Assembly: GCA_963731655.1 (NCBI GenBank)
Contig: CAVSWL010000003.1
Location: forward strand, 24,443-88,442
DNA: 64,000 bases
Direction: 5' to 3'
Source: an uncultured Gammaproteobacteria bacterium
GTDB taxonomy: Bacteria; Pseudomonadota; Gammaproteobacteria; JAAEPA01
Each line of letters begins with the position of its first letter. The first letter of the stretch is position 1. Under the pieces are notes generated by a model. It was not told the origin of the DNA. It saw only the letters and a program-made list of their open reading frames with translations, and made no database searches. Positions 31,805 to 50,255 of this stretch are shown here, piece by piece. The translations under genes were made by a program, and so were the position numbers.

Positions 31805-32449
31805 GTGACAATCCGCCGCCTTTCCTCTCGCACCGAACGATTAGACCAGAATTTTCTGCTCGAGCACCTGAAGAACGCGCGCAGTTATAAGCGTATCGCG
31901 GGCTATTTCACCAGTTCCCTGTTCGAGATAGCTTATGAATGGCTCGACGAGATCCCGGAAGTCAAGATCGTCTGTAACGTGGACATTCACCCCGATGATC
32001 TGAAAGTGGCGCAATTGCGGGAATCGAAGATGATCGGCCGCTGGAATGAGAATGCCATCGAGGCCGAGGCCTTATTGAACCGCTCCCGCTACCGCCGGCT
32101 GGATCAGTTTCTGGCTAAGCGCGGCCCGATGATTCGCGTGGCGCCGGACAGTATCTGCGGCTTTGTTCACGGCAGGGCCGGCGTAATCGAGCTGGCCGAT
32201 TGCCGTAAGCTAGGGTTTATCGGCTCCATGAACGAGACCAGCAGCGGCTGGCAGCGTCATTATGAGATCCTTTGGGAGGATGATTCACCCGAGGGCGTCG
32301 CCTGGATTGAACAAGAGTTTGATTTTCTGTGGAATGCCGCCCGCCCCATGCCGGAGGCGGTGATCTGTGAGGTCAAACGGCGGGATTGCTCAGCAGTACT
32401 TTCACGCAGCGATTTTATAAAATTGATGAGCGAGGGTTGGAGTCCGTGA
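31805..32449 (+). pseudogene. PLD-like nuclease domain, N-terminal stub of a PLD-helicase (helicase part missing)
   Basis: RIAGYFTSSLFE.. and FVHGRAGVIELADCRKLGFIGSMNETSSGW form an HKD-like motif that reads H-G-R. The ORF stops ~100 bp before the 610-bp repeat. Confidence 0.5.
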
Positions 32450-36085: not shown

Positions 36086-37570
36086 TTAACCACCGGTGCG
36101 CTTATAAATTTTACGCACCGCATCGGGGCTGATGTCTTCAATCCGAGCGACCCTATAGTCAATCATGTCCTCGAAATCGTCGTGATCAAAACCCAACACA
36201 TCCACGTTGCTGCGAGTTTCATGGATAATGATTTGTGGGTGTAGGGGTTGATTCTCTGCATCCGCATCGCGTAATACCAACTGAATCCGGCGCCAGTCAT
36301 CATAGAAATATTCCTGCAGCAACGGCACCAATTGATTCAGCAGCACGTCTTTTAACGCAGCGAAATCCCGCACTTTGCATAAATACGCATGCCCCAACAT
36401 CAAGTCCCGGTTCAGCAAGAAACGAAGGCGCTTGTTCATCGCTTCCAACAATGCCCGCAGATTAATGACCCCACCTTCGCCATCCTCGATATAGCCGTCA
36501 CCACGGGAGCCCCTGATGACGCCCGCATCCGGCATCATTTCCTGAAATCTGAAACGGCGGCGCAAGGCGGTATCCAACAACGCGATGGAACGGTCAGCCG
36601 TGTTCATGGTGCCGTAGATGTCCAGATTCTTCGGCACCGTAAAGGCATCGCCGGAATACGGCAAGGTGATCGACAAGCCTGCCGCGAGGCTGCCGTCCGG
36701 TTTATAAGTCGCGCGTTTGTCCTGCTCAATTAAGGTAATCAGCTCACCGAAAATCTTGGCGATATTGCCACGGTTAATCTCGTCAATAAAAATGGCGTAA
36801 CGGTTTGCCGCATCATTTTGAGCGCGTTGGCAAATCCGCCGAAACACACCGGGGACCACCCGATAAACCAACTCGCCCGATTCTTCGTCTTGCACCGGCC
36901 GGATGCCTTCCACAAAATCCTCATAGCTGTAGGCTTGATGAAAGGTGACAAACTCGTAGCGGGTTTGAGCGTTTACTGCTGATGTATATTCCGCTTTCTT
37001 TCGATTGAGCTCGTACGTTTTACCTGTGCCAGGAGGGCCGTAGAGGATTAGATTAGTCGCCTCTGCGACCTCGGAAATGTCTTCGGTCATCGGCTTGGAA
37101 GGGGAAAGATTAGATAACTGATCCCACAATTTTTCTAGTTCCTCCGCACTGCGTTTTTTAATTTCTATTCCGGACGCCTGGGGCCACCATTGCTGATTGT
37201 CGATCGTGATTGCCGCAAGGTCTTTTTCGGTGATGAAATTCTCTTCGAATAAATCGAGAATGCGGATGTATTCAATATCCACATAGCGCCGGGATTTTTC
37301 TTTCGTTACATCCCCACTTATCTCATCTGAAGAAAATGATTCATAGGGCTCGGATACGATGTGACCCAAACCCATTATGCCTTTGGGCGATTCACCTACA
37401 CGTATCAACCAGGCCTTATCCCCCACGGATATTTTTTGACTTGCACAGCGCCTTTTGTGGACAACCGTAGCTCCTTGCCGTGTTCTTTGGATGTCTTCAG
37501 CCAAATCCGTCCATTCTCCCTTCCGAGGGTTCCAACAAAAGAGCCAATGGGATGGTGAGGTATCAGTCAT
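36086..37570 (-). CDS. mcrB: McrB AAA+ GTPase with an N-terminal PUA/EVE-like domain
   Basis: LILYGPPGTGKTY, FIDEINRGNIAKIFGEL and GTMNTADRSIALLDTALRRRF. The N-terminal ~90 aa (HWLFCWNP..GDKAWLIRVG..GIMGLGHIV) resemble a PUA-like reader fold. Confidence 0.9.
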   Translation of the reverse strand: MTDTSPSHWLFCWNPRKGEWTDLAEDIQRTRQGATVVHKRRCASQKISVGDKAWLIRVGESPKGIMGLGHIVSEPYESFSSDEISGDVTKEKSRRYVDIEYIRILDLFEENFITEKDLAAITIDNQQWWPQASGIEIKKRSAEELEKLWDQLSNLSPSKPMTEDISEVAEATNLILYGPPGTGKTYELNRKKAEYTSAVNAQTRYEFVTFHQAYSYEDFVEGIRPVQDEESGELVYRVVPGVFRRICQRAQNDAANRYAIFIDEINRGNIAKIFGELITLIEQDKRATYKPDGSLAAGLSITLPYSGDAFTVPKNLDIYGTMNTADRSIALLDTALRRRFRFQEMMPDAGVIRGSRGDGYIEDGEGGVINLRALLEAMNKRLRFLLNRDLMLGHAYLCKVRDFAALKDVLLNQLVPLLQEYFYDDWRRIQLVLRDADAENQPLHPQIIIHETRSNVDVLGFDHDDFEDMIDYRVARIEDISPDAVRKIYKRTGG

Positions 37571-37573
37571 AGT

Positions 37574-37608
37574 CGTTTATCGTTGATCGGTTATCGGTTA
37601 TCGGTTTT
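37574..37608 (+). repeat. heptamer array A: 5 tandem units (CGTTTAT CGTTGAT CGGTTAT CGGTTAT CGGTTTT)
   Basis: Read directly. It begins 4 nt beyond the mcrB start codon and lies 5' of the plus-strand PIN cassette. Confidence 0.9.
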
Positions 37609-37650
37609 TTATCTCTTGAGAAAAAACGGAGCATTTGTACAATTGTCTTT

Positions 37651-38040
37651 ATGAACATTTTGGCAGATACGAATATATTTTTAGCGGTTGTTCTGGATGA
37701 GCCGGAAAAAGACCGTATCATCCAACTCACAGCAGAGGCTGATCCCATCGCGCCGGAAATATTGCCGTATGAAATTGGTAATGCGCTATCCGCCATGATT
37801 AAGCGCAAGCAGATTACGCGGGATGAAGCGTTATCTGCGCAAAAAGCTACAAGCTTTATCCCTGTGAGGTTGATCCACATAGATGTGCCATTGGCCCTAA
37901 AACTTGCGATTGCATGCAATATCTACGCGTATGACGCTTATTTCCTACAGTGTGCAAAATCCTTAAGCCTTCCGCTTTTAACACTCGACAAGCGCATGAA
38001 ACAAATAGCCACACGGCTTAATATCGACGTGTTGGAGTAA
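37651..38040 (+). CDS. PIN-domain toxin (VapC-like)
   Basis: 129 aa with ILADTNIFLAVVL (first acidic residue) and AYDAYFL. On the opposite strand to the surrounding operon. Confidence 0.8.
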   Translation: MNILADTNIFLAVVLDEPEKDRIIQLTAEADPIAPEILPYEIGNALSAMIKRKQITRDEALSAQKATSFIPVRLIHIDVPLALKLAIACNIYAYDAYFLQCAKSLSLPLLTLDKRMKQIATRLNIDVLE

Positions 38041-38046
38041 CCCTTA

Positions 38047-38265
38047 ATGAAAGTATTTACCTATTCAGAAGCCCGCCAGAATCTTGCTAAGCTATTAAAG
38101 CTTGCGCAAAAAGAAGAGGTCGAAATTCGTAGACGAGATGGCACTTTGTTTTCCTTAACGTTAAAGAAGAAAAAAGCAAAATCACCTTTCGATGTTCCCG
38201 GAATAAAAACGAAAGCGACGACTGAAGAGATTTTGGATGCTGTTCGGGAATCGAGAAAAAGTTAA
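38047..38265 (+). CDS. Phd/YefM-type antitoxin, encoded downstream of its toxin
   Basis: 72 aa. MKVFTYSEARQNLAKLL..EEVEIRRRDG is a Phd/YefM N-terminal pattern. It lies 6 nt after the PIN gene. Confidence 0.65.
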   Translation: MKVFTYSEARQNLAKLLKLAQKEEVEIRRRDGTLFSLTLKKKKAKSPFDVPGIKTKATTEEILDAVRESRKS

Positions 38266-38275
38266 CAGTTATTTT

Positions 38276-38333
38276 CGGTTGTCGGTTGTCGGTTGTCGGT
38301 TAACCGTAAACTGATAACTGATAACCGATAACG
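38276..38333 (+). repeat. heptamer palindrome B: (CGGTTGT)x3 CGGTTAA | CCGTAAA (CTGATAA)x2 CCGATAA
   Basis: Hand pairing around the GGTTAACC centre (38298-38305) gives ~22 Watson-Crick pairs plus 4 G:T on the plus strand. It fills the gap between the Phd stop and the MTase stop. Confidence 0.9.
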
Positions 38334-38334
38334 T

Positions 38335-40422
38335 TTAAATCCCGACAACAACCCGCTGCTCGCTGCGCTCAATCTCGCTAAGCGCATCAAACGCTTCCAA
38401 CACCAACCGTCTTGTTCGATATTCGCCGAATTCTTTGATCTCCTTGTTCTTTAGGACACGAAAGGTTTCTGAAGGGTAGTCCTCGCCCATCACGTCCGCG
38501 GGATCGAGGATGTAGCGCAGCTCGTCGCGGGTCAGACCGTAAAGTTTTGCATAGTAGGCGTCCAGTTCGGATTTGAGTTGGTGGCGACGTTCGGGGTCGA
38601 AGGGGAACGGTTCGCCGAAGTAGCCTAAGTCTTCGGCGAAGGGTTTTAGGTCGTGGGTGGTGTAGGCGAGTTCTAGGACGCGGGGGAGGATGAATTTTTG
38701 GTCAGTCCGGGCGTATTGATCGGGAGAAAGAAATGGCAATTGTTTTGGAATGTAGAAATTGAAATTTGCTCCACCTATCTTCTGCCGTGCAATAAAATCA
38801 AATATTAAGCTGATGCAATTTGCGTAAAATGCGGCTATTTGAGGAGTGTGGATATCCTGAGAGGGTATTAGCAGGTGAAAACTATTTCCGACAGGTGATA
38901 TAGGAATAATGCATGGAATTACGCTTCTTTCATCTGTTGTTCTGGCAATTCCTCGCCACCCCAATAAATACTTGGGCCGCCGCGATTCCAGCAGCGGCCA
39001 AACCAGCATCCAAGGATCGGCATTTGCTTTCAGCGACTTTGCCAGTTGCGTAGTTTCCTCGTAGCTCAGTGGATAGTCGTGTTGCATTTGCCGCGCGGCT
39101 TCGGTCTGCGGCGACGGGGTGGTGGCGAATAAATCACCGTTGGTCCCCTGCGTCGGAGAAGCTAACAAACTATCGAATAGTGACCTGTATTTCTTTCCCG
39201 GATGCAGCGCCAGATGCGCGCCGGCGGTCCAGAGTTTCAAAGCGGTGGTGAGCGCTTCAGCATCTTGCTTTTTAGCGGCATCCAGCACCGCTTTAGGCGC
39301 GCGGGCGGTGCGCAGGGTGACTTCGTTTTTTGCCACCCAATAGCGGGGCCGGTTGACGTAGTTGGGGGCTTGCTTCTCCGCCAGCGTGCAATCCCGGCTG
39401 GTTTCGCCGTCGGTTTCGTAGGTCGCCCAACGGTGGTCGTAGTGGTGGATCATTTTTGCTTCATATAATCGTAAATGGTTGTCAGTTATCAGTTGTCGGT
39501 TAACGGTTTTTGCTTTGCTGTTAACCGGTAACTGATAACCGGTAACCGATAACTCCTCGAGTTGGTTATGAGTCGTAAACAAGCCGCTGTCGTTGGACAT
39601 ATCAAATAACCGAGCGAACTTGATGCCCCAAGAATTTTGCTCCGGCTTTTTGCCACTTGCCTCGCGGATCAATACCGGTGCAGAGCGGTAGAGTTTTTTG
39701 GTCAACTCGGCGTCCATCTGGGAGCGAAATACCGGGCAGGTTTTGGTGTTGGGGTTGATGAGCTCGAATTCTTCTCTGCTCAAACTGAAGCGCCGTCGAT
39801 CATCTTTAAGTTGCGTGGGCTGGGTGGCGAAAAACGCCAACTCTGCCTTCGGCACGTTATAGCCCATAGTCAGCAGACAAAATTTGTAACTGCGATGTAC
39901 GCCGGGAAACAATGCATCACGATTCTCGAAATCATACAAGTTGGCCAAACGATTCCCTGCCGCCAACCAACCGAAGAACAACTTGGTCGAGTCGTCGGTG
40001 GCGATGCCGGTAGGTACAATCGTACCCGCTCGACCGTCCGGGTTGATCGCTTTGGCGAAGTGCTCGGCAAAAATTGCATAGAGATTGACGTCGCCGCGTC
40101 CCGTCAGCGGATAGCGCCCCGATAGACGCGCAAAGGCGCTGCCGCCTTCTGCGCTTTGTTTGGCCCGCATAAAATCATCGTATAAGGTTCGTTCGGCCGG
40201 AGTATCGCTATTAGTCAGGGCGTTGATCAGACGGTTGCGTGCGGCGGCATTGGCGGCTCCCGCAATTCCGGTGCTGCGCGACGCGAAAAATTCCTTTTCC
40301 TGTAATTTGATGCGCTCCCAAGGCGGATTCCCCAGCATCACGTCAAATCCACCGTTCCCTTCTTCATCAAACACGCTCGGAAACGCCAGTGGCCAGTGAA
40401 AGAACTGGTGGGTTTCGGCCAA
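38335..40422 (-). CDS. N6-adenine DNA methyltransferase, 3' fragment (catalytic NPPW motif plus C-terminal domains)
   Basis: 695 aa with FDVMLGNPPWERI (motif IV) and LYEAKMIHHYDHRW. It joins the upstream fragment through a 1-nt frameshift near 40424. Confidence 0.85.
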   Translation of the reverse strand: MAETHQFFHWPLAFPSVFDEEGNGGFDVMLGNPPWERIKLQEKEFFASRSTGIAGAANAAARNRLINALTNSDTPAERTLYDDFMRAKQSAEGGSAFARLSGRYPLTGRGDVNLYAIFAEHFAKAINPDGRAGTIVPTGIATDDSTKLFFGWLAAGNRLANLYDFENRDALFPGVHRSYKFCLLTMGYNVPKAELAFFATQPTQLKDDRRRFSLSREEFELINPNTKTCPVFRSQMDAELTKKLYRSAPVLIREASGKKPEQNSWGIKFARLFDMSNDSGLFTTHNQLEELSVTGYQLPVNSKAKTVNRQLITDNHLRLYEAKMIHHYDHRWATYETDGETSRDCTLAEKQAPNYVNRPRYWVAKNEVTLRTARAPKAVLDAAKKQDAEALTTALKLWTAGAHLALHPGKKYRSLFDSLLASPTQGTNGDLFATTPSPQTEAARQMQHDYPLSYEETTQLAKSLKANADPWMLVWPLLESRRPKYLLGWRGIARTTDERSVIPCIIPISPVGNSFHLLIPSQDIHTPQIAAFYANCISLIFDFIARQKIGGANFNFYIPKQLPFLSPDQYARTDQKFILPRVLELAYTTHDLKPFAEDLGYFGEPFPFDPERRHQLKSELDAYYAKLYGLTRDELRYILDPADVMGEDYPSETFRVLKNKEIKEFGEYRTRRLVLEAFDALSEIERSEQRVVVGI
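39477..39553 (+). repeat. heptamer palindrome C, in-frame inside the methyltransferase gene
   Basis: Arms at 39477-39506 and 39520-39553 with a 13-nt loop. It is translated on the minus strand as ..ELSVTGYQLPVNSKAKTVNRQLITDN.. without a stop. Confidence 0.9.
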
Positions 40423-41230
40423 GTGCGGTGACCATTTGATAGACGCCTACCGGTAACATGCCGCCGTCGGCGAGCAGCTTCAGGTGGGCATTGGTGGGAA
40501 CGCTGTCCCGGGTTTCTGCGGTTTTGGGCGCAAAGAAAGCCGCGGTAAAGAGGTCCTCCAGTAGCCGTTCGTCTTTGGACTGCTGATCTTGCCGGGCTTG
40601 CTCGAAGGCGCGGCGCTTGGCTTCGACCTGTTCCACGCTGTCTTCCGGCATGGTTTCAAAATCGTTAAACGGAAGCGAAGCCATGTTCAACGACACGGCG
40701 ATATCCTCGCCGGCTATTTTGTTGATTTTTCTCAGTTCGGTGCAGATTTTTTTATCGTCCCCCGACAATGCCTTGTAAGCATCGTCCGGGATGCCGTTCT
40801 CCAACAGCGCTGGATCCAGCACGCCCACCAAAGCATTACCGCATCGAACATGGGCGTCCAGAAAACTTAGAGGTTTCCCCGGCTCGATGGACTCCAGCCA
40901 CAGGCCGGTCTTACACAGTTCGATGGCCAAGGGATTGATATCCACCCCATAAATACTGTGCCGTACAACTTCGCGCAGGGCATGGCGATAGTGTTGCTCT
41001 GTGGATTGATCGAGCCCCGCGTCGATACGCGCCAACTCCATCGCCAGGCGACGCGCCGCCGCCAGCAGGAAATGGCCCGAGCCGCAGGCTGGGTCGCATA
41101 CGGTAATTGAAAGAATTGACTCGCGGGGATTTTTGGGATTCCGTTGCAGGCGGTCCTCGATCACCGGCACCAGCGCCGATTGAATCAGCTCCTGCACCAG
41201 GGAATCGGGAGTGTAATAGGAACCGGACAA
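40367..41230 (-). CDS. N6-adenine DNA methyltransferase, middle fragment (SAM-binding motif I)
   Basis: 287 aa with SGSYYTPDSLV and VCDPACGSGHFLL. The frame is open upstream to the MITE border (..FLGDDEDEQATNGHARKL). Confidence 0.85.
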   Translation of the reverse strand: MSGSYYTPDSLVQELIQSALVPVIEDRLQRNPKNPRESILSITVCDPACGSGHFLLAAARRLAMELARIDAGLDQSTEQHYRHALREVVRHSIYGVDINPLAIELCKTGLWLESIEPGKPLSFLDAHVRCGNALVGVLDPALLENGIPDDAYKALSGDDKKICTELRKINKIAGEDIAVSLNMASLPFNDFETMPEDSVEQVEAKRRAFEQARQDQQSKDERLLEDLFTAAFFAPKTAETRDSVPTNAHLKLLADGGMLPVGVYQMVTALGRNPPVLSLATGVSERV

Positions 41231-41282
41231 TTTACGTGCGTGACCGTTGGTTGCTTGCTCGTCCTCGTCATCACCTAGAAAG

Positions 41283-41490
41283 CATACGTCACAAGTTAAC
41301 CAAATTAGGAAAATGTCAAGTTCTCTGGTAAAGAAAATTTTACTTTAATAATCATTAGATTACATGTCTGCCCGATGTGTTGTGGTCAGAATGGCAAAAG
41401 CGATTCACTTTTTAGGTTTTTTTAACATATTGTTTTAATTTAGATTTTATTTCTTGACAAATCCACTTTTTTCCTAACTTGTGGCGAATG
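41283..41490. mobile_element. 208-bp MITE-like insertion with a 9-bp target-site duplication
   Basis: TSD CCTAGAAAG at 41274-41282 and 41491-41499. Terminal inverted repeats are CATACGTCACAAGTTA and CATTCGCCACAAGTTA (14 of 16 match). AT-rich with no ORF. Removing the element plus one TSD rejoins ..WRLSFLG|DDEDEQ.. in frame. Confidence 0.8.
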
Positions 41491-42851
41491 CCTAGAAAGC
41501 TTAAACGCCATTGACCTTGGGTGCGCAATTGCGGAATCAGCTCCAGCAGGGATTCGTATACCGAACCGAATTCTTCGGTGTCCATATCCCGGTAATTAAC
41601 CAGGGACAGTACGCCCTCATATTGGAAGTAACCAAGCTTAAACAGCGCCTCATACAAAAAGCGGTTTTCCAGTTCACAGAATTCCAACGCCGCGCATTGC
41701 TCGACGCTAAATATGCCGCCCAGTGCGGGTTGGGCTAGTAAGGACTGGCCGTTTGCAAAACCGGCAAAGATGATCAACAGTTGCTGCCAGGCGTCGCCAT
41801 AGTGGTCATGGTGGGCGCGCAGCCGCGAGCGCTTGCGCAATTGGGCGACGCTGTAGCTTTGTTGGTACAAGCTCCTGGCAGCGGTGTAATCTTGCCCATC
41901 ATGGTCTACGGGTAAAAGGGCCAGATCGCGGTCTTCCGCAGTCAGCAAGAACAGCAGGCGGTACACCAGGCGCAATACCTGTTGGTAATACTGCTCGGTG
42001 GACAGCTCGCCGCTGCTGAGCTGGTCGCGCAGCGCTAGGTTTTGCGGGTGCGCCACAAATCCCGTGCCCAACGCGCGCAAGGCGTCTGCCACGCCGTAGC
42101 GCAACTCGCCCAATACGCGTTCGCCTTCGGCCGCGCCTTTCTGCCGCCATTGTTCCAGCCAACAGTTCTCTAATATGCCATTCTGAGGCTCTGTGCGGCT
42201 GTGATGCAGTAACAACCAAAGGGTTGCGAAGTCGGGATAGTTCTCTTCGTCAAATAAGCTGTCGAGATCCACCTCGATATAGGCCGGGCGGGTCATGGCG
42301 GGATTGTTGCGCAACACGCACAACTGAACACCGTTGGAAACCAGCGCCCACAGGCAGGCGTTTTCCGCGTTCAGGTATTCCTGGGCGAGACCCACGGGGG
42401 AGCGTTTATTGCCATCCTGACCGAAGGCGACATCGCCCTTATCCAATTCTTTGCCGGCGTCGCATAACACCAAGGGCACGCTGCCGTCGTTGGCGAAATG
42501 AGTGATGGGAAATTCGCGCTCACCGATGCGCCGCGGCTGAGCGGATTCAACGCGGAAACCCAAAACATCGTTTAACAGGGGCAAGAGCCAGAGTTTTACC
42601 GCCAGTCGTTCCGGATGAATATCGGTGCGCTGACGATGTTCGTTGTAAGCTTGCCAATGACTTTGCGCAATACGCCAATAACGGCCTAGCTCGTCCGCCA
42701 GCTTCAAGCATTTCGGAATTCCGTAGTCGGCCGGAGTTTGGCCAGGCAAGGCGTACTTGCGCGCCTTCCGCAACACCTGGCTGGTCAGCAGTCCACCGAC
42801 GACGCGGATGGATTCGAACAGTTGGTCGTTCGGATTAGTTTCCTTACTCAT
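41412..42851 (-). CDS. N6-adenine DNA methyltransferase, 5' fragment (N-terminal domain)
   Basis: 479-aa ORF. Residues after ..QGQWRLSFLG are read-through into the MITE, so genuine coding ends at about 41491. Confidence 0.75.
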   Translation of the reverse strand: MSKETNPNDQLFESIRVVGGLLTSQVLRKARKYALPGQTPADYGIPKCLKLADELGRYWRIAQSHWQAYNEHRQRTDIHPERLAVKLWLLPLLNDVLGFRVESAQPRRIGEREFPITHFANDGSVPLVLCDAGKELDKGDVAFGQDGNKRSPVGLAQEYLNAENACLWALVSNGVQLCVLRNNPAMTRPAYIEVDLDSLFDEENYPDFATLWLLLHHSRTEPQNGILENCWLEQWRQKGAAEGERVLGELRYGVADALRALGTGFVAHPQNLALRDQLSSGELSTEQYYQQVLRLVYRLLFLLTAEDRDLALLPVDHDGQDYTAARSLYQQSYSVAQLRKRSRLRAHHDHYGDAWQQLLIIFAGFANGQSLLAQPALGGIFSVEQCAALEFCELENRFLYEALFKLGYFQYEGVLSLVNYRDMDTEEFGSVYESLLELIPQLRTQGQWRLSFLGIRHKLGKKWICQEIKSKLKQYVKKT

Positions 42852-42868
42852 TGGTCCTTTTCTAAAAA

Positions 42869-42924
42869 GTTATCGGTTATCAGTTATCGGTTTCCGGTTA
42901 GCTGCTAACCGATAACCGACAACC
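42869..42924 (+). repeat. heptamer palindrome D
   Basis: GTTATCGGTTATCAGTTATCGGTTTCCGGTTA - GCTGC - TAACCGATAACCGACAACC. It lies between the MTase start (42851) and the four-helix-bundle gene stop (42926). Confidence 0.9.
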
Positions 42925-42925
42925 T

Positions 42926-43276
42926 TCAACGATTATTCAAAGAATCATGTAACGCCTGAAGCATTCTTGAAATTGATTTCAATTCCTTAATCAGTGCTTT
43001 CGCTTCCACGTCTGGAAGCAGCTTGACGGCTTGCGCGATAAACACCTGAGTTCTCAGTTCCGCGGCCGACCCCTTTGATATGTTTGTAAATCGCTTAAAT
43101 TCAGCAACACTGTTTCTCTCACTTCCTTCCGCAACATTAGAAGGAATGGATACCGCCGCGCGCAGCATTTGATCCTTCATTGCGTAATCGCGACAATCTC
43201 TCAGTAATTCATACAGACGTACCGTCAACCGACACGACTTCTTCCAAACCTCCAACTCTTCAAACCCAACACTCAT
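42926..43276 (-). CDS. four-helix-bundle protein (23S rRNA intervening-sequence / S23p family)
   Basis: 116 aa. FEELEVWKKS, LRAAVSIPSNVAEGSER and SKGSAAELRTQ are the hallmark of the TIGR02436-type family. Confidence 0.85.
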   Translation of the reverse strand: MSVGFEELEVWKKSCRLTVRLYELLRDCRDYAMKDQMLRAAVSIPSNVAEGSERNSVAEFKRFTNISKGSAAELRTQVFIAQAVKLLPDVEAKALIKELKSISRMLQALHDSLNNR

Positions 43277-43288
43277 CCCTTATCCCCA

Positions 43289-43349
43289 CCGACAACCGAC
43301 AACCACGACAACCGACAACCGATAACCGATAACCGATAACCGATAACCC
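43289..43349 (+). repeat. heptamer array E: ~8.5 tandem units (CCGACAA x4 with one 9-mer, then CCGATAA x4)
   Basis: Read directly. It fills the gap between the four-helix-bundle start (43276) and the SNF2 stop (43352). Its orientation is complementary to arrays A and F. Confidence 0.9.
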
Positions 43350-43351
43350 CT

Positions 43352-44581
43352 TCATAACAAACCTATATCCGGCACCAAGACATAAACGCCAACCACATCC
43401 ACCGGCAATTGCGGGTGAACCTGGTATTTGCCGCGGGCCTCGGCGGCTTCGCGGGTTCGGCGGTGGTCGGCCAGCAGGGTTTCGGCTCGTTCGCGGGCGA
43501 GTTGTTCAAACAAAGCCTGCCGCGCCGGCAGTTCGTCGATGGCTCGGGATAACTCACGGTTTTTTCTTTCCAAGGGCATGTTTTTACTGACTTTCGCCTG
43601 CATCAATTGCAGGGCCTGCTGCTTTGGCAATACCTTGGTTTTGCCAGCGCCGGTTACGGCCACGGCCAGCGCTTCTTCTCCTAATAAATCCCGGGCGGCG
43701 TCGCCGCGCTTGAGCGTGAGGCGCGACCGCAGCCGCAGTAGATAAACGATGGTTTTGGACTCGACGTCCGCGGTGTATATCGCACTGGCGCGGGCGACCA
43801 GTTGGGTGTTGGCGCCGCGCATGGCCATTTCCGCCAGGTAGTCCGCGAGCTGGCTTACCAGCGGATGGGTGCGGTGGATAAACTCGGCGTGAGCCGCGCT
43901 CGGATATTGGAAGTCGATTTTCTTGAGTTGCAGCAAGCCGGCAGCTTCCAGGCGGTCTTTGAGTTGTGGATGCTTGTCACCCACGTGTTGCAGTGGCGCA
44001 CCGAAACCTCCGATTGAGATGGGCTGCAGCGGCGCGCCCAGCCGGTCCAAGGCGTTGACGACAAAACGTTGTACGTCCTGCTCGGTACCCAACACGGCGA
44101 AGGCCTTTTCCCACTCTGGCAACACATCATCCGGCTTGAGTCGATTCTGTGCGAAGACGGTGCGGTTCTGCCTGGCCTTGTCACGGGCGGATGCCCACTT
44201 GGCATCCAGAGCCTGCACCTCTTCATCGTCGACAAAGAGATCGAACTGTTTGCTTGCTCGCCGCTCCTTGCGAAGCAAAACGGTATTGAGGATTGCCTGA
44301 GTCACCCGGTTGTCGTCTTCCGGCATAGGCACCGACACGCCCAAGGCCTTACGAATATTGTCGGCTTTGCGCAAAATGACTTGCAGTACGGCGCCGTCGA
44401 TCGGATTGTCATCGCCGTATAACATGAGCGCCTTGACCGTCCGCGCGCGCTGGCCGAAGCGGTCGACCCGGCCTTCGCGTTGTTCGTGCCGGGTGGGGTT
44501 CCAGCTCAGGTCGTAATGCACGACCGCGGTGAATTGATCCTGCAGGTTAATCCCTTCCGATAAACAGTCGGTGGCGACCAA
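43352..44581 (-). CDS. SNF2-family helicase, 3' fragment (helicase C domain plus C-terminal region)
   Basis: 409 aa with VATDCLSEGINLQ and WNPTRHEQREGRVDRFGQ. Confidence 0.85.
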   Translation of the reverse strand: MVATDCLSEGINLQDQFTAVVHYDLSWNPTRHEQREGRVDRFGQRARTVKALMLYGDDNPIDGAVLQVILRKADNIRKALGVSVPMPEDDNRVTQAILNTVLLRKERRASKQFDLFVDDEEVQALDAKWASARDKARQNRTVFAQNRLKPDDVLPEWEKAFAVLGTEQDVQRFVVNALDRLGAPLQPISIGGFGAPLQHVGDKHPQLKDRLEAAGLLQLKKIDFQYPSAAHAEFIHRTHPLVSQLADYLAEMAMRGANTQLVARASAIYTADVESKTIVYLLRLRSRLTLKRGDAARDLLGEEALAVAVTGAGKTKVLPKQQALQLMQAKVSKNMPLERKNRELSRAIDELPARQALFEQLARERAETLLADHRRTREAAEARGKYQVHPQLPVDVVGVYVLVPDIGLL

Positions 44582-46257
44582 AATCGGATCTTTATCGCTG
44601 ATTTTAGCTGTTCGATTTTTTCCTGTCGCTCGACCGGTGTCAGATCACCGGTTACGAAAATCACTTCACGGTGCTTGAATCGTTCGGCGAGTTGTTCCGC
44701 CAGGTATTCCGCGGTGGCGATATATCGGCAAAAGATGACCGGGTGATAACCCTCGTCCAACATGGGTTTGAGCATTTTCAGCAATGTTTTGAGTTTGGGA
44801 TCACCGCTGCTTTTGAGCCGTTGCGCGCGCCCGATCAATTGATTCAGGCGATCGATATCTTCAGGCAAGGCCGCCCCAGGTTCGGCGTCGTCAAAGCTGA
44901 GGCCATCGTCCGCGCCATCGAGCACACTGGCGGCCCCCTGGGTCTCCAGCGCCGCCTGCAATTGGTGTTCGTTTTCAGGGTCGGCATCAAGAGTGGTGGT
45001 TAAACGGGTGTTCAGCGCGCGAATCGCCGCCTGGGGAGAGGATGAAATACAACGCAACAAGGCCAGCGCCGCCCACCAGTTCATGCGCGCTTTAAGCGTG
45101 CCTTGATGTTCACGTTCGACCAGTTCGCGCGCATAGGCCAAGACGTCTTGGAAAATGGCCTCCCATTCATCGCTGAGCTGGTAAGTTGCCTCGGTGGTTA
45201 AGCGCTCCGGAAACAGGGTCATATCCTGCCATTCTCTGATATCTTGGCGGCGCCGCTGAATAAAATGTTCAGCCAATGCCAGCCGCAAAGGATGGTTCGC
45301 GCTTTCAATCTGTATGAGTTCTGCGAATTCGGGTTTGAGTAAGGACAACAAGTTGTAAAAGGCTTCTTCGTCGCCGCTGTGCGGCGTGGCGGTTAACATC
45401 AGTAAATGACGCGAACTCTTGTTGGCCAAATCTTTGAGCAGCTCGTAACGCTGTTGCCGTCCCTGGCCCCTGTGGGAGCAGGTATGCGCCTCGTCGACGA
45501 TGATAAAATCGGGGCATTGCTCGGCGAAGGCGTCCCGGCGGTTTTTATTCTTGACATAATCCAGCGAGACGATAGTAAACGGGTATTCGGTAAATATTGA
45601 GCTGCCGGCCGGTAAGCTGCGCTCCAGGCGGCCCGCGGTCGTCGAGCGCACCACGGCGGTCTCGATATGAAAACGGTTCTTGAGCTCTTCGTGCCATTGA
45701 TCGCAGAGGTGCGGTGGGCACAAAACGCTCAGCCCATCGATTTCACCGCGATCCAGCATCTCCCGAGCAATGAGCCCCGCCTCGATCGTTTTGCCGATGC
45801 CGACATCATCTGCGATGAGCAAGCGAATCACGTCGAGTTTCAGGGCCATCATCAGTGGCACGAGCTGGTAGGCGCGAGGTTCGAGGGCAATGTTGCCGAA
45901 ACTGCGAAACGGCCCGGCGCCGGCGCGCAGTTTCAGCATCAGCGCATCACGCAGCAACAAGCCGGCGGATTGCGTACCGGCTTGATTCAATTCCGGATAA
46001 GGAAAGCGGGCTGGGACGATCGCTTCGCGTTCCAGCACGGGTTCAATCACGGTTTCCGCATCGTCACCCCCGCCCAGGGGACGAAGATGGAGTCTGTCGG
46101 CTTCGCTCTGCGGCAGCACTACCCATTCACGCCCGCGCGCACGCACGATGCCTCCGGGTGTAAACGTTATTCGGTTATCGGTTCTCGGTTGCCGGTTATC
46201 AGTGGGCATTAGGTGGCTCCGAAGATGTCGGGGTAGCGGGCGATGATCGCGGGCCAC
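44506..46257 (-). CDS. SNF2-family helicase, 5' fragment (probable start at ATG 46209)
   Basis: ADDVGIGKTIEAG, IIVDEAHTCS and LMLTATPHSG. The frame is lost near 44597, where ..EQLKSA should continue DKDPILVATD. The start at 46209 gives a TAATG overlap with the upstream stop. Confidence 0.85.
   Translation of the reverse strand: MARDHRPLPRHLRSHLMPTDNRQPRTDNRITFTPGGIVRARGREWVVLPQSEADRLHLRPLGGGDDAETVIEPVLEREAIVPARFPYPELNQAGTQSAGLLLRDALMLKLRAGAGPFRSFGNIALEPRAYQLVPLMMALKLDVIRLLIADDVGIGKTIEAGLIAREMLDRGEIDGLSVLCPPHLCDQWHEELKNRFHIETAVVRSTTAGRLERSLPAGSSIFTEYPFTIVSLDYVKNKNRRDAFAEQCPDFIIVDEAHTCSHRGQGRQQRYELLKDLANKSSRHLLMLTATPHSGDEEAFYNLLSLLKPEFAELIQIESANHPLRLALAEHFIQRRRQDIREWQDMTLFPERLTTEATYQLSDEWEAIFQDVLAYARELVEREHQGTLKARMNWWAALALLRCISSSPQAAIRALNTRLTTTLDADPENEHQLQAALETQGAASVLDGADDGLSFDDAEPGAALPEDIDRLNQLIGRAQRLKSSGDPKLKTLLKMLKPMLDEGYHPVIFCRYIATAEYLAEQLAERFKHREVIFVTGDLTPVERQEKIEQLKSAIKIRFWSPPTVYRKGLTCRINSPRSCITT
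46165..46199 (+). repeat. heptamer array F: 5 units (CGTTATT CGGTTAT CGGTTCT CGGTTGC CGGTTAT)
   Basis: Read directly. It lies in the first ~14 codons of the SNF2 ORF, encoding TDNRQPRTDNRI on the minus strand. Confidence 0.9.
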
Positions 46258-47516
46258 TGGTTTTGTTCTTCCGGGAAGCGGATCACCGTCAGACCCGCCG
46301 CTTCCAGTTGCGCGGCCAACTCGTCGTCCAGATTCTTTTGATTAGGGTGCTCGTGATGCGGACCATCGATGTAGATGGTTGCTTGGTGTACCTGGTAGAT
46401 AAAATCCGGCCGGGTATTGAACCTCTCGATGACCACCTGCGCATCGTCGGGCAGCTGATAGCCGTTTTGTTTTAAATACACGACAAAGGCTTGTTCCGGC
46501 GAGTTGTCGGAGCTATTGCTGAGGGGATTATCGACTTGCTTATCATGGCCGCGTCCGCCGTTGGGGGTTTTAAGCGTCGCGTTTGCTAATTGCTTGAGCA
46601 GTTCCAGGACATCGGGATGTTGCCGGTCGATCAACTTGTGATCCATTTGGTTGTAGTAGCTAAGTAAACAGCGATAACAACCGGCTTCACAATCGGGATT
46701 GTTGTTGTGATGCGTTCGCCAATCGTCGTTGGTTTCGAAGTGGCAGAGCTGCAATGCACGAGTGGCGATCCTGCCCAGAGCGTCTTTATCGGTGGTCAAT
46801 CGGGTTAATACTCCGGCGCCGCCTTCGGCCGCCTCGTAGAATAAAATCGCATAGCGCTCATCGCGATTCGGCAGAGGTTCGCAGATCAATTCCGATTCTT
46901 CGATCTGATATTCTTCTTCGATGCCGCGTTTCAAGGCATATTGCAATGTCGTGAGCACTTCCTCATCGAGCCGATTTTTGGGTCTGAGGATCAGCACGTT
47001 GCGCCGATCCTCGACATAGGGTGTAATGCGATCGATCGTGCGCTCTGGTTTGGCGAAATCCTTTTCGTGTTCAGCCGGCGCCTGTTCGTCCTTAGCCCAT
47101 TCGCCGGTTACGGTATCGATATTGAATCCAAAGATTGACGCTTCTCTGCGGCGCCGCCAGCCGAGGTTCATGCGCCAAACCGTCGCGGCCGGGGCATACT
47201 GCATGCTAAGCAAGGGTTCATCATCGTGGCCAATTTCGCGCTGGACCACATTGAGCCCATTGCCATTTTTGGCGAACTGCACCGTGGTCTGCATGTCGTA
47301 GCCTTGGCGTTGGCGTTCTTCTTCGTCACAGGTGATACGCAATACGCGCCGAGTACTGACATTTTCGACTCGATAAAGATTGTCGATGCGTTTGCCACCC
47401 TCGATGGGCTCACCGCAGGCATTGCACAGCTCATCCTCAAGCTGTTGCAGGAAATGCCCATATCCGCAAGAGGGGCATAAACGAGCTTCTTTTTTGGCCA
47501 GCACGAACGATTCCAC
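46209..47516 (-). CDS. DUF1998 (DrmB-like) zinc-ribbon protein with a C-terminal DUF559/Vsr-like endonuclease domain
   Basis: 435 aa with CPSCG..CNACG, ITCDEEERQRQGY and CEAGCYRCLLSYYNQ (DUF1998 signature). The C-terminus RPDFIY..TIYIDGPHHEH..DDELAAQLEAAGLTVIRF is a DUF559-type PD-(D/E)xK pattern. Confidence 0.75.
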   Translation of the reverse strand: MESFVLAKKEARLCPSCGYGHFLQQLEDELCNACGEPIEGGKRIDNLYRVENVSTRRVLRITCDEEERQRQGYDMQTTVQFAKNGNGLNVVQREIGHDDEPLLSMQYAPAATVWRMNLGWRRRREASIFGFNIDTVTGEWAKDEQAPAEHEKDFAKPERTIDRITPYVEDRRNVLILRPKNRLDEEVLTTLQYALKRGIEEEYQIEESELICEPLPNRDERYAILFYEAAEGGAGVLTRLTTDKDALGRIATRALQLCHFETNDDWRTHHNNNPDCEAGCYRCLLSYYNQMDHKLIDRQHPDVLELLKQLANATLKTPNGGRGHDKQVDNPLSNSSDNSPEQAFVVYLKQNGYQLPDDAQVVIERFNTRPDFIYQVHQATIYIDGPHHEHPNQKNLDDELAAQLEAAGLTVIRFPEEQNQWPAIIARYPDIFGAT

Positions 47517-47522
47517 GTCTTG

Positions 47523-50255
47523 TCAATCGTTAATACCGAGCATGACCTTTTTTACGCGGTACTGACTGCCCTCGTGATAAATCAGGCTAAGCGGGCCGAA
47601 TTCGGAAATCGCCAGGAAACGCGGCCGGGCCAGAAAGCTGTCGCGGCCCACATTGCCTCGGCGGCCCTGGATATACGCTAACAGCGGCAAACGCGGGAAG
47701 TTATAGCCCGGTAAAAAGCCTTGGCTGGCGAGATAACGGTACGTTGAGAAATCTGAACTCATTTCACTGTGGGCGTTGAGCAACAAATTGATCTGCGTTT
47801 TTGCTTCGCTATAGCGGCGATCCGCCGCCTTTCGATCCCGCTCAACTGAGGCTGGATTGGCGATGATTCGATGGGCTTTTTGTAGCTGCTCTTCGGTTGA
47901 GGCATAGAGATCGCGCCAACGCCTGAGTGATTGGTCGAAACTGGCGAAGGCATTGTTAACTTTTGCGTTCAGCCAGTCTGCGTAAGCCTGTTCCAGGCTC
48001 ACATCTGACTCCAGCCAGACGCCTTGCGCCTGGATTAATCCGTCGCCTAACATCTTGAGTAAATTTAAACCGCGGCTAGCGGTCCTTTGGCGCACCTCGT
48101 CCGAGTCCATTTGTCGGGTAAACTCTTGCAGCAGCGGCATAGCATCGGGCTGATTCATATCGAGCATACCGTTTACCGTTTTTGGTAAGGCTTTGCCGGT
48201 TTCATTTAGCCACACTGCGTGCAGATGACTCGCGACCAGATCCTGATTTGCGAGATCCAATGTCGGTGGACTCACGTGGCCGTGCACCATCCGCGCCGGA
48301 TCGCTGAAGAAATATTGGTCATGCGGACTGAGCGCCGCGCAATAGGTGATGACCAATGCGGGTTGCCCGGAGCGTCCGGCCCGTCCGGAACGCTGCGCAT
48401 AGTTCGCTGGTGTCGGCGGAACGTTGCGCATATAAACGGTATTCAACGAGGCGATATCGACGCCTAATTCCATCGTGGGCGAACAGAACAGCGTTTTGAG
48501 CTCGGCGCTGCGGAATAGTTTTTCACGTTCTTCGCGGTCTTTTATCTCCACCTGGGCGGTGTGCTCCCTAGCCTGCAGATCAAACAGCGTGCGACCGCCT
48601 TGTCGGAGTATTTCCTTAATCGTGGTGTATAACGTGCGGAAGTATTTGTTATCGGAATGGTAAGGGTTGGTCGGATCGGGTTCAGGTCTCTCCTCAACCG
48701 CTTTCCATTGCAAAAACTCACCCAACAGCTGATAGCCTTGGACGCCGCCGCCCCCTTCTACTGGTTCTACCAAACCATAGGCCTGCAATGCTTGCATGAG
48801 GCTAAGAATTAGATCCGGGTAATTTTCATCGTTGAATTTGGGTAAGAAATGAAAATCTTCGCGCCAGATCTCCCTGCGTTTGAGAGCAAGCCCCAGCGTT
48901 GAGCGGCTGGATGCGGTGACGAGATTAAAATCATTGTTATGCCGCCGGGGTTTACTATCCAGCAGCAAAATACAAGCCGATTGCAAATATTCCTCTTCAG
49001 TGAAAGCCCAGGGTTCTTTTAAATACTGATAGCTTTGGCTCTTAAATCGCTCCTGTTGGATGGGGTCGAGGTAGCGGCTTTTTATACAGAGGCCTCGGCG
49101 CATGGTATCCAGCACTGCTTTAAGCGCGCGATAGCGGTTTTCAGGCGAAGCGTTTTTTAATTCTGGACAGGGTAGGTTTTCCCACTCGGCTTGGTCGCGG
49201 CACAGCTCTTCCAGGCCCACATAATCGATGCGCAACAATCCGAGTTGTTCAAGATTCGGATTATTAAAACGCCAGCCGCGGCGCAGATCGAAGTAAAGGC
49301 GGTAAGCCAACACGTTTCTGACGGCTTCTTCCGCCTTTCTCCGCCCAGGCCCTTTGGCAGCTGGATTTTCAAGATAATCGGCGCCGTCTTTATCAAAGCC
49401 CAAACTTTGAAATACCGCTTGCGATAGGTCGCTATCGGTCAAATACTCCTGGTCCGCACCTTCGACTGCGGCTAATAAGCCGGTCCGTAGCAAGAGAATT
49501 TGCACAAAATCGTTGTAATGGCCCGCTTGCAACGATGCATCCTGACGATTATCGGTAAAACCCAGCAGCTTTTTCGCGTCGCTGGTTAATTCGGTGTCGC
49601 GCTCCAACATGTAACGCAGAGCGGAAATAGTGAGTACAGTGGTCGCCGAAGAGCGCCCTTCACCACTGAGTGAAGTCAATCGCGTTTCGTCCCGCCCACG
49701 AGCCGCATGCGACATTCCACAACTCAAACAGAAACGGAAGCTTCCCGGTACGAACCAACCAGGGGCTCCTTTGTGACTAATTTCACCCCAAGGCGTAACG
49801 ACAATCTGTTGCGGTTTAAATTTTTTGTAACTGCTTTTAAGTTTGTAATCACCGTTCTTTGATTCGAGCCAATGCTCCGGATAATTATTCGAATCGCTTG
49901 CGTCCCACTGGCTAAGCGGATCGAACATGAAAAAGCCCCAATGGTCGTCTTCTTCTGCGCTGTCGCGTTCGTCGATCGGGCGCGGATTTAAAACACGTTT
50001 GTCGTCTTCCATTTCAAGCCATACCGTGTGGTACTCCTGACCGCATTGCCGGCAGAAATGCAGACTGAAAAATTTTTTACTGCGATCGCCCGGTAGGAAT
50101 TGTTGGCCGGTCAAATCGAATTCACGTTTTTCTGCAGGCTCAAGCGTGGAGAAGACATTGTTAGCCCCCGAAATAAACTGGTGCAAACGGAAAGCAAACA
50201 AAGGCTTGCCTTTGTTATCCCGGCAGTGATAGGCGGACAACAGGAACTGGCGCAA
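47523..50255 (-). CDS. DExH helicase (DrmA/COG1205-like), 3' part, downstream of an in-frame TAG
   Basis: 910 aa in the track, with the frame open up to 50423. Helicase C motifs are ELGVDIASL and YAQRSGRAGRSGQ. The C-terminal GFLPGYNFP..IYHEGSQYRV resembles the beginning of a DUF1998 region. Confidence 0.85.
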   Translation of the reverse strand: MRQFLLSAYHCRDNKGKPLFAFRLHQFISGANNVFSTLEPAEKREFDLTGQQFLPGDRSKKFFSLHFCRQCGQEYHTVWLEMEDDKRVLNPRPIDERDSAEEDDHWGFFMFDPLSQWDASDSNNYPEHWLESKNGDYKLKSSYKKFKPQQIVVTPWGEISHKGAPGWFVPGSFRFCLSCGMSHAARGRDETRLTSLSGEGRSSATTVLTISALRYMLERDTELTSDAKKLLGFTDNRQDASLQAGHYNDFVQILLLRTGLLAAVEGADQEYLTDSDLSQAVFQSLGFDKDGADYLENPAAKGPGRRKAEEAVRNVLAYRLYFDLRRGWRFNNPNLEQLGLLRIDYVGLEELCRDQAEWENLPCPELKNASPENRYRALKAVLDTMRRGLCIKSRYLDPIQQERFKSQSYQYLKEPWAFTEEEYLQSACILLLDSKPRRHNNDFNLVTASSRSTLGLALKRREIWREDFHFLPKFNDENYPDLILSLMQALQAYGLVEPVEGGGGVQGYQLLGEFLQWKAVEERPEPDPTNPYHSDNKYFRTLYTTIKEILRQGGRTLFDLQAREHTAQVEIKDREEREKLFRSAELKTLFCSPTMELGVDIASLNTVYMRNVPPTPANYAQRSGRAGRSGQPALVITYCAALSPHDQYFFSDPARMVHGHVSPPTLDLANQDLVASHLHAVWLNETGKALPKTVNGMLDMNQPDAMPLLQEFTRQMDSDEVRQRTASRGLNLLKMLGDGLIQAQGVWLESDVSLEQAYADWLNAKVNNAFASFDQSLRRWRDLYASTEEQLQKAHRIIANPASVERDRKAADRRYSEAKTQINLLLNAHSEMSSDFSTYRYLASQGFLPGYNFPRLPLLAYIQGRRGNVGRDSFLARPRFLAISEFGPLSLIYHEGSQYRVKKVMLGIND

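Follow-up and report, generated by a model that had tools for sequence, protein, structure and literature searches.

Six arrays of tandem heptanucleotides, A to F, lie in and between the genes of a defence operon in a stretch of 64,000 nt (hereafter the window) from contig CAVSWL010000003.1 of an uncultured Gammaproteobacteria bacterium. Their sequence indicates that the six loci are copies of one slippage-prone heptanucleotide family that occurs at gene junctions of many bacteria. Our preferred reading, to which we assign a probability of about 0.6, is that arrays E and D, together with the gene they enclose, form a cassette of the type of the intervening sequences (IVS) of rRNA genes, placed here in an mRNA operon, that B, C and D are stem-forming members of the family, that the neighbouring PIN-Phd toxin-antitoxin module is unrelated to it, and that the arrays act by pairing at the RNA level.

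The gene between E and D encodes a four-helix-bundle (4HB) protein that matches the Pfam family 23S_rRNA_IVP (PF05635) over its full length (E 2.4e-32) and the structure PDB 2GSC (E 1.1e-15). In the predicted fold of the minus-strand RNA from 43360 to 42850, array E as the 5' arm pairs with the distal, AAC-phase half of D as the 3' arm (43352-43318 with about 42906-42864), giving a stem of ~35 bp that encloses the whole 4HB open reading frame (ORF) and is present in both the minimum free energy (MFE) and the centroid structures; the total MFE of this RNA is -168 kcal/mol (z -4.6). The window's cassette aligns end to end, arrays included, with three other loci, L125, L126 and L099 (Pyrinomonadaceae), in which the layout of 5' tandem heptamers and ORF-enclosing terminal stem is also found, and the 4HB protein of L125, whose gene is located downstream of metK, is 70% identical in amino acids to that of the window. 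Since these alignments extend over the full length of the cassette, the 4HB gene and its arrays appear to travel together between contexts. Taken together, the sequence data support E and D as the terminal inverted repeats of a compact cassette with a 4HB (S23p/PF05635) gene as cargo. Of the element types to which the arrays had been likened in an earlier note on this DNA, the IVS is a fitting one for the 4HB cassette, the build of which is shared with most close PF05635 relatives and with the 23S rRNA IVS of Coxiella. The location is different, as the cassette lies between the SNF2 and methyltransferase ORFs and not in a 23S or 16S rRNA gene; there are no rRNA genes in the window.

Relatives of the window's 4HB gene were collected from metagenome contigs (at least 494 confirmed matches), and 80 loci were kept, 72 of which had flanks usable for statistics. 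The layout that recurs in these loci consists of the stop codon of the upstream gene, tandem heptamers, a short Shine-Dalgarno region, the 4HB ORF, a reverse-complement heptamer array and the next gene. A strict period-7 caller found upstream arrays in 24 of the 72 loci, downstream arrays in 14 and arrays on both sides in nine; periods of 5, 6, 8 and 9 nt were called in only 0-3 loci each, and 1440 shuffles yielded none. The flank-to-flank complementarity score reached 14 or more in 32 of the 72 loci, as compared to 0/72 with shuffled flanks, and the upstream and downstream units matched in inverted orientation in 14 of 20 loci and in direct orientation in two of 20, while units of different loci matched in 14%. 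The unit itself varies by lineage (CGGTTNN, GTTTTCA, GTTTTAA, GGTTTCA, GACAGAA, AAAGGCT and others), without a change in its period of 7 or in the inverted arrangement. Orientation agrees between the 4HB gene and the gene upstream of it in 53/60 loci, and between the 4HB gene and the gene downstream in 49/65, and the 4HB ORFs of the related loci read through over nearly their full length. Neighbours in the 80 loci include metK upstream (18 loci), ahcY downstream (12), DNA methylases (three), groEL (two) and sugar-nucleotide enzymes.

Cassettes between metK and ahcY recur (L125, L149, L150, L154, L158, L160, L164 and others), and in L153 and L156 the cassette lies just upstream of groEL; in both settings it spans the entire spacer from stop codon to start codon. 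The Coxiella IVS unit, GACAGAA or GACAGAT, was seen around non-rRNA 4HB genes in L152, L157, L162, L171 and L172, and in the first three of these the GACAGAA-flanked gene is located downstream of a metK-like gene. In L094 (about 3880-4010) a more distant 4HB gene is followed by a long array of another short palindromic repeat (GGGACCCATAGGTCCTAT-like), which suggests that repeat-built flanks extend beyond the heptamer type. In viral contigs an array was detected in only 27 stretches and a 4HB relative was encoded in none of them, so that phages are not an evident vector of the cassette.

The arrays as members of a repeat family

The arrays were called by direct reading of the region, Tandem Repeats Finder (TRF), a phase-locked regular expression and an inverted-repeat finder. 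Their positions and those of the surrounding genes are listed in Table 1.

Table 1. Heptamer arrays and genes of the defence operon in the window
Feature	Position	Strand	Description	Basis
Array A	37573-37608	minus (operon) strand	direct; GTT phase on + strand; (TAACCGA)n on minus strand	TRF, phase-locked regular expression
Array B	38272-38333	+	palindrome: (CGGTTGT)4, then AAC-phase units including TAACTGA	regular expression, inverted-repeat finder
Array C	39477-39555	-	palindrome with 15-nt loop, in frame inside the DrmMI-like methyltransferase	regular expression, inverted-repeat finder
Array D	42866-42926	-	palindrome between 4HB stop (42926) and methyltransferase start (42851)	regular expression, inverted-repeat finder
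Array E	43288-43349	-	8.4 direct units, (CGGTTAT/CGGTTGT)n in 4HB sense; AAC phase on + strand	TRF, regular expression
Array F	46166-46200	-	direct; GTT phase on + strand; (TAACCGA-like)n in operon sense	regular expression
McrC	34806-36083	-	intact
McrB	36086-37570	-	EVE + AAA_5; intact
PIN-Phd module	37613-38265	+	PIN (VapC)-Phd toxin-antitoxin module	Pfam, promoter scan
PIN (VapC)	37651-38040	+		Pfam
Phd	38047-38265	+		Pfam
Methyltransferase	42851 down to 38335	-	DrmMI-like N6 methyltransferase
4HB protein	42926-43276	-	PF05635, 23S_rRNA_IVP / S23p family, 116 aa	Pfam, PDB
SNF2 helicase	46209 down to 43352	-	DpdE/DrmD-like
MZB/DUF1998 protein	46209-47516	-
DEAD helicase	farther upstream of the MZB/DUF1998 gene	-

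The unit of the arrays is TCGGTTA, i.e. TAACCGA on the opposite strand, with the variant TCGGTTG. TAACCGA and CAACCGA dominate, and the 1-nt variant TAACTGA (TCAGTTA on the other strand) is present among the TAACCGA units of B, C and D. The heptamer CGGTTAT occurs 19 times in the window, compared to 5.9 +/- 2.6 times in shuffles, none of 100 of which reached 19, and 11 of the 19 copies fall within the six loci. The earlier note had placed six arrays here and none elsewhere in the 64 kb, and this was confirmed with TRF, the regular expression and the inverted-repeat finder: in the remaining 55 kb TRF and the regular expression detected no further array, the only other calls being one chance-level triple at 2384-2404 (loosest pattern) and two 2-copy TRF rows. 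The orientation map of that note, > >< >< >< < > from A to F on the plus strand, is correct, and so are the junctions that it had assigned. Array A adjoins the start of mcrB at a distance of 2 nt from the ATG (37570) and, on the plus strand, lies 8 nt upstream of the promoter-like site of PIN-Phd. B, between the Phd stop and the methyltransferase stop, adjoins the latter (38335-38337), and D and E occupy the gaps between the SNF2 stop, the 4HB gene and the methyltransferase start, with E beginning 2 nt past the SNF2 stop. F is found at the SNF2/DUF1998 junction, just 3' of a TAATG (46207-46211) in which the DUF1998 stop codon overlaps the SNF2 start codon; it is thus within the first ~15 SNF2 codons and encodes residues ~3-14. 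Homology to SNF2 relatives begins directly after F, and residue 2 of the L124 SNF2 protein aligns at 46176.

Since the arrays are reproduced in L001, which is 99.8% identical and derives from a separate sequencing run, and in the orthologous loci L205-L211 (84-87% identity), they are not assembly artefacts. No Rfam family matched at the gathering threshold in the whole window or at E <= 1 in the 37.3-46.4 kb region, and hence no known RNA family explains the arrays; a tRNA scan found none. CRISPR-like (clustered regularly interspaced short palindromic repeat) and coding-repeat readings were rejected, as the repeats are tandem, lack spacers and lie mostly outside ORFs.

When one genome per species was searched for exact matches to three CGGTTRT units, at least 120 stretches were returned, and those listed belong to Bacteroidota, Acidobacteriota, Chloroflexota, Poribacteria, several Gammaproteobacteria, cyanobacteria and others. 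Carriers of CGGTTRT arrays include a cultured Flavobacterium, Maribacter zhoushanensis, Algivirga pacifica and Thiorhodococcus minor. In a 6.6-Mb chromosome of the Thermoanaerobaculia (OY970284.1) the matches fall into six 8-kb blocks and five well-separated regions, near 1.3, 2.0, 3.0, 3.7 and 5.5 Mb. Elsewhere, too, the arrays occupy short spacers and adjoin ORF ends, and many are '+ then -' palindromes like B, C and D. Direct arrays between co-directional genes that read TAACCGA in mRNA sense (n = 25) end at a median distance of ~9 nt upstream of the following start codon; direct arrays that read TCGGTTA in mRNA sense (n = 14) begin at a median of ~4 nt past the preceding stop codon; A, E and F follow these rules. 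The 150 flanking proteins examined represent 185 Pfam families, mostly housekeeping and not defence, with ABC transporters, dehydrogenases, GTPases, lipid A acyltransferase and ribonucleotide reductase among them. Given this occurrence in many phyla, the dispersal along a chromosome and the mostly housekeeping neighbours, the arrays are not special to the defence operon, contrary to what had been supposed. Scatter over the genome without relation to gene junctions or cargo had been named in advance as the mark of a generic repetitive extragenic palindromic (REP)-type repeat; the scatter is indeed observed in other genomes, but the relation to gene junctions is nonetheless tight.

Orthologous operons, palindrome C and the PIN-Phd module

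One ORF (38335-40422) reads in frame through palindrome C, and the ~30 residues that C encodes fall in a linker of variable length bordered by MSNDSGLF and LPLYEAKM. The methyltransferase gene is therefore not split into a 5' and a 3' part by C, as had been claimed; its breaks are an insert at 41284-41490 and a +1 frameshift near 40421, where there is one extra base relative to the intact L205 ortholog. In L205 (84% identity), C is found at the identical site in an intact methyltransferase ORF of at least 1430 aa, and A, PIN-Phd and B are present as well, with changed unit variants. In L123 (74-79% identity) the palindrome at this site is 42 nt shorter (6 units, 14 codons), while L122 (64-80% nucleotide identity in the methyltransferase) has an ordinary linker there and no arrays. 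L208 (87% identity) retains A, PIN-Phd and B and likewise has an ordinary linker, without a palindrome, at the C site. The position of array A is kept in L205 and L208 with different unit variants. The proposed likeness to Rickettsia palindromic elements (RPEs) thus fits C, an in-frame palindrome in an ORF that is intact in the ortholog L205. Presence/absence polymorphism exists in this operon: L124 has the orthologous order helicase-MZB, SNF2, methyltransferase, McrB, McrC at ~68% nucleotide identity and carries no arrays, no 4HB gene and no PIN-Phd module.

In the loci L208-L211, which are rearranged, the outer edge of A is exactly the point from which homology to the window starts, an unrelated 116-aa ORF takes the place of mcrB, and the methyltransferase gene has deletions to either side of site C. 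Breakpoints of the rearrangement hence coincide with arrays, which hints that the arrays are fragile or recombinogenic. In L123, several copies of a different, GC-rich palindrome (e.g. CATTCCCACGCTTCTGCGTGGGAAT) were noticed downstream of the methyltransferase gene (11340-11510); this appears to be a repeat of the REP kind that has no relation to the heptamers.

The PIN-Phd module has a promoter-like site of its own (TTGAGA-16-TACAAT, 37616-37643) and occurs in other contexts, in L212 and L213, without arrays, the similarity to the window ending at 37613 and 38264, inward of A and B. Because the module occurs array-free in these loci, A and B are neighbours of PIN-Phd and not its ends. Of the earlier proposal that each small cassette has an array on its 5' side and a hairpin on its 3' side, the layout itself is seen, but A and B do not delimit PIN-Phd. 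On sequence grounds we consider the module an independent mobile toxin-antitoxin unit, outside the repeat family, that landed between A and B. At E <= 1e-10 its homologs number more than 2500; the best 120 of them are 71-91% identical, stem from sulfur-oxidising Gammaproteobacteria (Sedimenticola, Halothiobacillaceae, Candidatus Halobeggiatoa) and are in many cases on contigs of 1-2 kb. Relatives of the methyltransferase gene point to sulfur-oxidising Gammaproteobacteria as well. In this lineage, the linkage between PIN-Phd and the 3' end of the methyltransferase gene is stable (L205-L213 compared).

These comparisons bear on an alternative explanation, in which the arrays are DNA recombination or integration sites, attC-like or resembling transposon ends, for cassette insertion or exchange at the junctions of defence operons. 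PIN-Phd and the 4HB gene each being bracketed by a 5' array and a 3' palindrome, the empty junctions in L124, the breakpoints in L208-L211 and the flanks of the 4HB cassettes, inverted like transposon terminal repeats and without RNA bias for the sense strand, would all agree with such sites. However, PIN-Phd is array-free elsewhere, arrays elsewhere lie between housekeeping genes, C has no cargo and is kept in frame in orthologs, and B, C and D show no target-site duplications. Moreover, the units misfit the attC core GTTRRRY, and with a unit that changes from lineage to lineage a shared core site is lacking. The scan of ORFs across 29.5-55.8 kb revealed no integron-type (tyrosine-recombinase/IntI) integrase; its one integrase-like match, a weak one to the rve core domain (53333-54349), lies 7 kb away from F. 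No sign was found that the arrays act as recombination sites for the swapping of modules, as the earlier note had envisaged, and we regard this explanation as improbable; for the window, a dedicated cassette-exchange system for defence operons is not supported.

With PIN-Phd as the sole exception, all genes of the operon are on the minus strand. The DISARM/Druantia-like operon looks to be decaying, sequencing error being possible: besides the insert and frameshift in the methyltransferase gene, the SNF2 gene is frameshifted at 44596-44638, and the helicase contains in-frame TAG and TGA codons (50424-50426; 47523-47525) where L124 has a single fused helicase-MZB ORF. The methyltransferase insert resembles a miniature inverted-repeat transposable element (MITE) of 207 nt with 30% GC and imperfect terminal inverted repeats, on either side of which a 10-bp target sequence, CCTAGAAAGC, is directly duplicated (region 41274-41500). 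The insert is missing from the orthologs L205 and L123, and no second copy was found in the window or in any fetched locus. Upstream of McrBC, a DUF3780 protein and a protein with a PLD-like nuclease domain (29515-30120, 31805-32449) may be further parts of a defence island.

Predicted pairing of the arrays in RNA and alternative explanations

In addition to the E/D stem, B, C and D are each predicted to fold by themselves, with energies between -30 and -39 kcal/mol and z values between -5.6 and -8.4; the predictions include a B hairpin of -36.7 kcal/mol (z -8.4) on the plus strand and -18.1 on the minus strand, and a C hairpin of -30.8 kcal/mol on the minus strand and -38.8 on the plus strand. 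A, E and F alone are predicted to be unstructured as RNA. The heptamer hairpins were not called in a terminator scan, the rules of which do not cover stems and loops of this kind.

In the reading that we prefer, the 4HB cassette would have entered the site between the SNF2 and methyltransferase genes as a whole, together with its arrays, since its closest relatives share CGGTTNN arrays in unrelated contexts and the distant orthologous operon of L124 is without the cassette. B, C and D would be versions of the stem without cargo, with C tolerated in frame in the variable methyltransferase linker, and A and F would be single forward arrays next to start codons. In the operon transcript, E and D could pair into the duplex of ~35 bp, and B, C and D could form hairpins of ~20-25 bp, all of which may be RNase III substrates or 3' stabilisers. 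Cleavage at the borders of the cassette would split the polycistronic RNA so that the cistrons on either side become uncoupled, in the way that 23S rRNA is fragmented when an IVS is excised. The forward arrays, for their part, would form an unstructured A/C-rich leader with stops in all three frames adjoining the next start codon. The build of the cassette, its recurrence in other loci, the constancy of period and complementarity and the presence/absence polymorphism are seen in the sequences themselves, whereas cleavage by RNase III, any influence on expression and the way in which the elements move are inferred.

Several observations weigh against this reading. The strict period-7 caller was positive in only about a third of the cassettes, and the remaining ones were judged from complementarity scores and from flanks read by eye. 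Among the 120 CGGTTRT loci listed, a 4HB gene lies within 8 kb in only six, and in the 200-450-nt intervals between opposed arrays of these 120 loci a six-frame search with a hidden Markov model of the cassette protein found only intact 4HB genes; because so few loci are near a 4HB gene and the intervals are not recognisable 4HB remnants, the derivation of solo arrays from cassettes is conjecture. Duplex energies, computed with duplexfold over 110-nt flanks and noisy, were more favourable for the antisense than for the sense strand in 47 versus 25 of the 72 cassettes (p 0.007), and since there is no sense bias, selection specific to an mRNA stem is not demonstrated by them; a role at the DNA level, as transposon-like terminal repeats, is possible instead. 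A role of the paired arrays in RNase III processing or RNA stability would be drawn by analogy from the IVS and the Correia elements (PMC2649163). Finally, the unusually high density of six arrays within 8.6 kb, which is matched by only one of 85 comparison loci, is not accounted for by this reading.

The arrays might also be neutral simple-sequence repeats, produced by replication slippage and strand switching in non-coding spacers and functionless, with their association with junctions and 4HB genes as a by-product of the places in which such repeats can be tolerated. Copy number and unit variants change freely between orthologs, copy number varies among Coxiella strains, the window's operon shows decay by MITE insertion, frameshifts and in-frame stops, and heptanucleotides are the commonest class of long simple-sequence repeats in prokaryotes, according to the summary of Mrazek (2007) given in PMC4679880. 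However, slippage alone cannot explain that the 4HB flanks carry the same unit in inverted orientation (14/20, compared to 14% between loci) while the unit differs by lineage. The exclusivity of period 7, the orientation-dependent distances to start and stop codons and the in-frame retention of C in genes that are 74-84% identical would likewise be left unexplained, and we give neutral repeats a low chance. Least probable of the three is that the arrays are putative sites for a protein (the pentameric 4HB protein or a host factor such as S1, Csp or CsrA) that reads the heptamers in RNA or DNA and controls the translation or stability of adjacent genes: although forward arrays end a few nt from start codons, usually without a Shine-Dalgarno sequence, the unit sequence tracks the 4HB lineage, and Avd of diversity-generating retroelements, a relative of the 4HB family, binds nucleic acid, most arrays have no 4HB gene nearby, the tracking is explained equally well by common descent, and the strict inversion of the flanks is better explained by pairing than by a sequence-specific reader.

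Meaning and comparison with known systems

Heptamer-flanked 4HB cassettes outside rRNA were not found described as a general class in the full-text literature searched, which leaves out most subscription journals. The statement in the earlier note that no description of such repeats exists was too strong, as publications exist both on TAACTGA repeats (PMC4679880) and on the heptamers in the IVS of Coxiella (PMC4990558). What appears to be new is that PF05635 genes outside rRNA are located in operons and bounded by inverted period-7 arrays, the unit of which varies while period and complementarity are kept, and this rule appears to link the rRNA IVS to the repeats of the TAACTGA type. The genes for 4HB or 23S rRNA IVS proteins are very common, and our data tie them to the heptamer arrays known from Beggiatoaceae, cyanobacteria and Bacteroidetes: 4HB genes in operons are usually accompanied by inverted period-7 arrays, in the design of the rRNA IVS that RNase III processes. 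A broader generalisation, which we put forward as tentative and consider doubtful, would be that 4HB cassettes are widespread intervening sequences of mRNA, cut out at the repeat stem, with the rRNA IVS as a special case, solo arrays as derivatives and the period of 7 as a ruler. If it were true, compact mobile cassettes would insert into transcription units of many phyla, between such genes as metK and ahcY or groES and groEL and within defence operons, and a period strictly fixed at 7 in a unit that changes freely would suggest a specific molecular ruler (the 4HB pentamer, RNase III or a polymerase) by which the stems are built or read. Were the stems processed in mRNA, this would provide a general way for selfish or regulatory elements to split transcripts and uncouple neighbouring genes, with chaperonin, S-adenosylmethionine metabolism and phage defence genes among those affected. 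For annotation, the array - 4HB - inverted array unit, together with solo stems, forms a recognisable class, and arrays inside ORFs (C, F) should be taken with caution as insertions and not as native coding sequence.

Among the known systems considered, integron cassettes share with the elements of the window a small cargo, often promoter-less or a toxin-antitoxin pair, followed by an imperfect 3' palindrome, and attC sites share 7-bp core motifs containing GTT and AAC. In contrast to attC, however, the sequences GTTATCG, GTTGTCG and GTTAACC, as read here, do not fit RYYYAAC/GTTRRRY, the arrays are tandem and not single core sites, and PIN-Phd has its own promoter and occurs elsewhere without a palindrome. 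The integron/attC reading was rejected on the misfit of the core-site pattern and the lack of an integron integrase among the ORFs scanned.

Correia elements (NEMIS) of Neisseria and RPEs are short, have inverted ends and are co-transcribed with neighbouring genes (PMC2649163, PMC10969869), and the RNA hairpins of Correia elements are bound or cleaved by RNase III (PMC2649163). Inverted arms and dispersed copies are likewise found in the window's family, and C resembles the RPEs (PMC10969869) in its in-frame residence in an ORF, where L205 retains it and L123 has a version shorter by 14 codons. Unlike in these MITE-like palindromes, the arms are composed of tandem 7-nt units and not of a unique terminal repeat, the copies share only the repeated unit, no target-site duplication is seen, and lineages have different units of the same period.

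A closer counterpart of the arrays themselves are the TAACTGA repeats, which are tandem, mostly intergenic and distributed patchily over several phyla, including marine Beggiatoaceae, cyanobacteria and Bacteroidetes (MacGregor, 2015; PMC4679880). In forward orientation they end a few nt before a start codon, usually without a Shine-Dalgarno sequence, which led MacGregor to propose a post-transcriptional regulator, and reverse copies occur occasionally in frame within ORFs (PMC4679880). The tandem 7-nt unit, intergenic location, forward arrays before start codons, in-frame copies and occurrence in many phyla are all features of the window's family as well, B, C and D contain TAACTGA units, and both A and F, in forward orientation, are close to a downstream start. 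The two differ in that the unit in the window is mainly the 1-nt variant TAACCGA, which is rare as a repeat in the BOGUAY genome (PMC4679880, Table 3), and in that palindromes dominate in the window, whereas only one 'indirect repeat' was reported for the TAACTGA repeats. No link from these repeats to S23p genes or IVS is made in that study (PMC4679880).

The cassette as a whole corresponds most closely to the S23p IVS of 23S rRNA (Coxiella burnetii, Leptospira and others). The 23S rRNA IVS of C. burnetii encodes an S23p protein of the family PF05635, has tandem GACAGAT heptamers before the S23p start, in a copy number that varies among strains, and is closed by a terminal stem of 28 bp that is cut by RNase III at the first repeat (PMC4990558). 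The PF05635 4HB cargo, the heptamers of variable copy number directly upstream of the ORF and the ORF-enclosing stem (28 bp in Coxiella, ~35 bp predicted in the window) are thus common to both, and the GACAGAA/T unit of the IVS also flanks non-rRNA relatives of the window's 4HB gene. RNase III excision has been demonstrated for the Coxiella IVS, whereas for the window's cassette it would be expected by analogy. Unlike the IVS, the window's cassette is located between protein-coding defence genes, and its relatives are found at metK-ahcY, groES-groEL and other sites. Moreover, in contrast to the S23p ORF of Coxiella, which was reported to be decaying (PMC4990558), the related 4HB ORFs outside rRNA are near full length.

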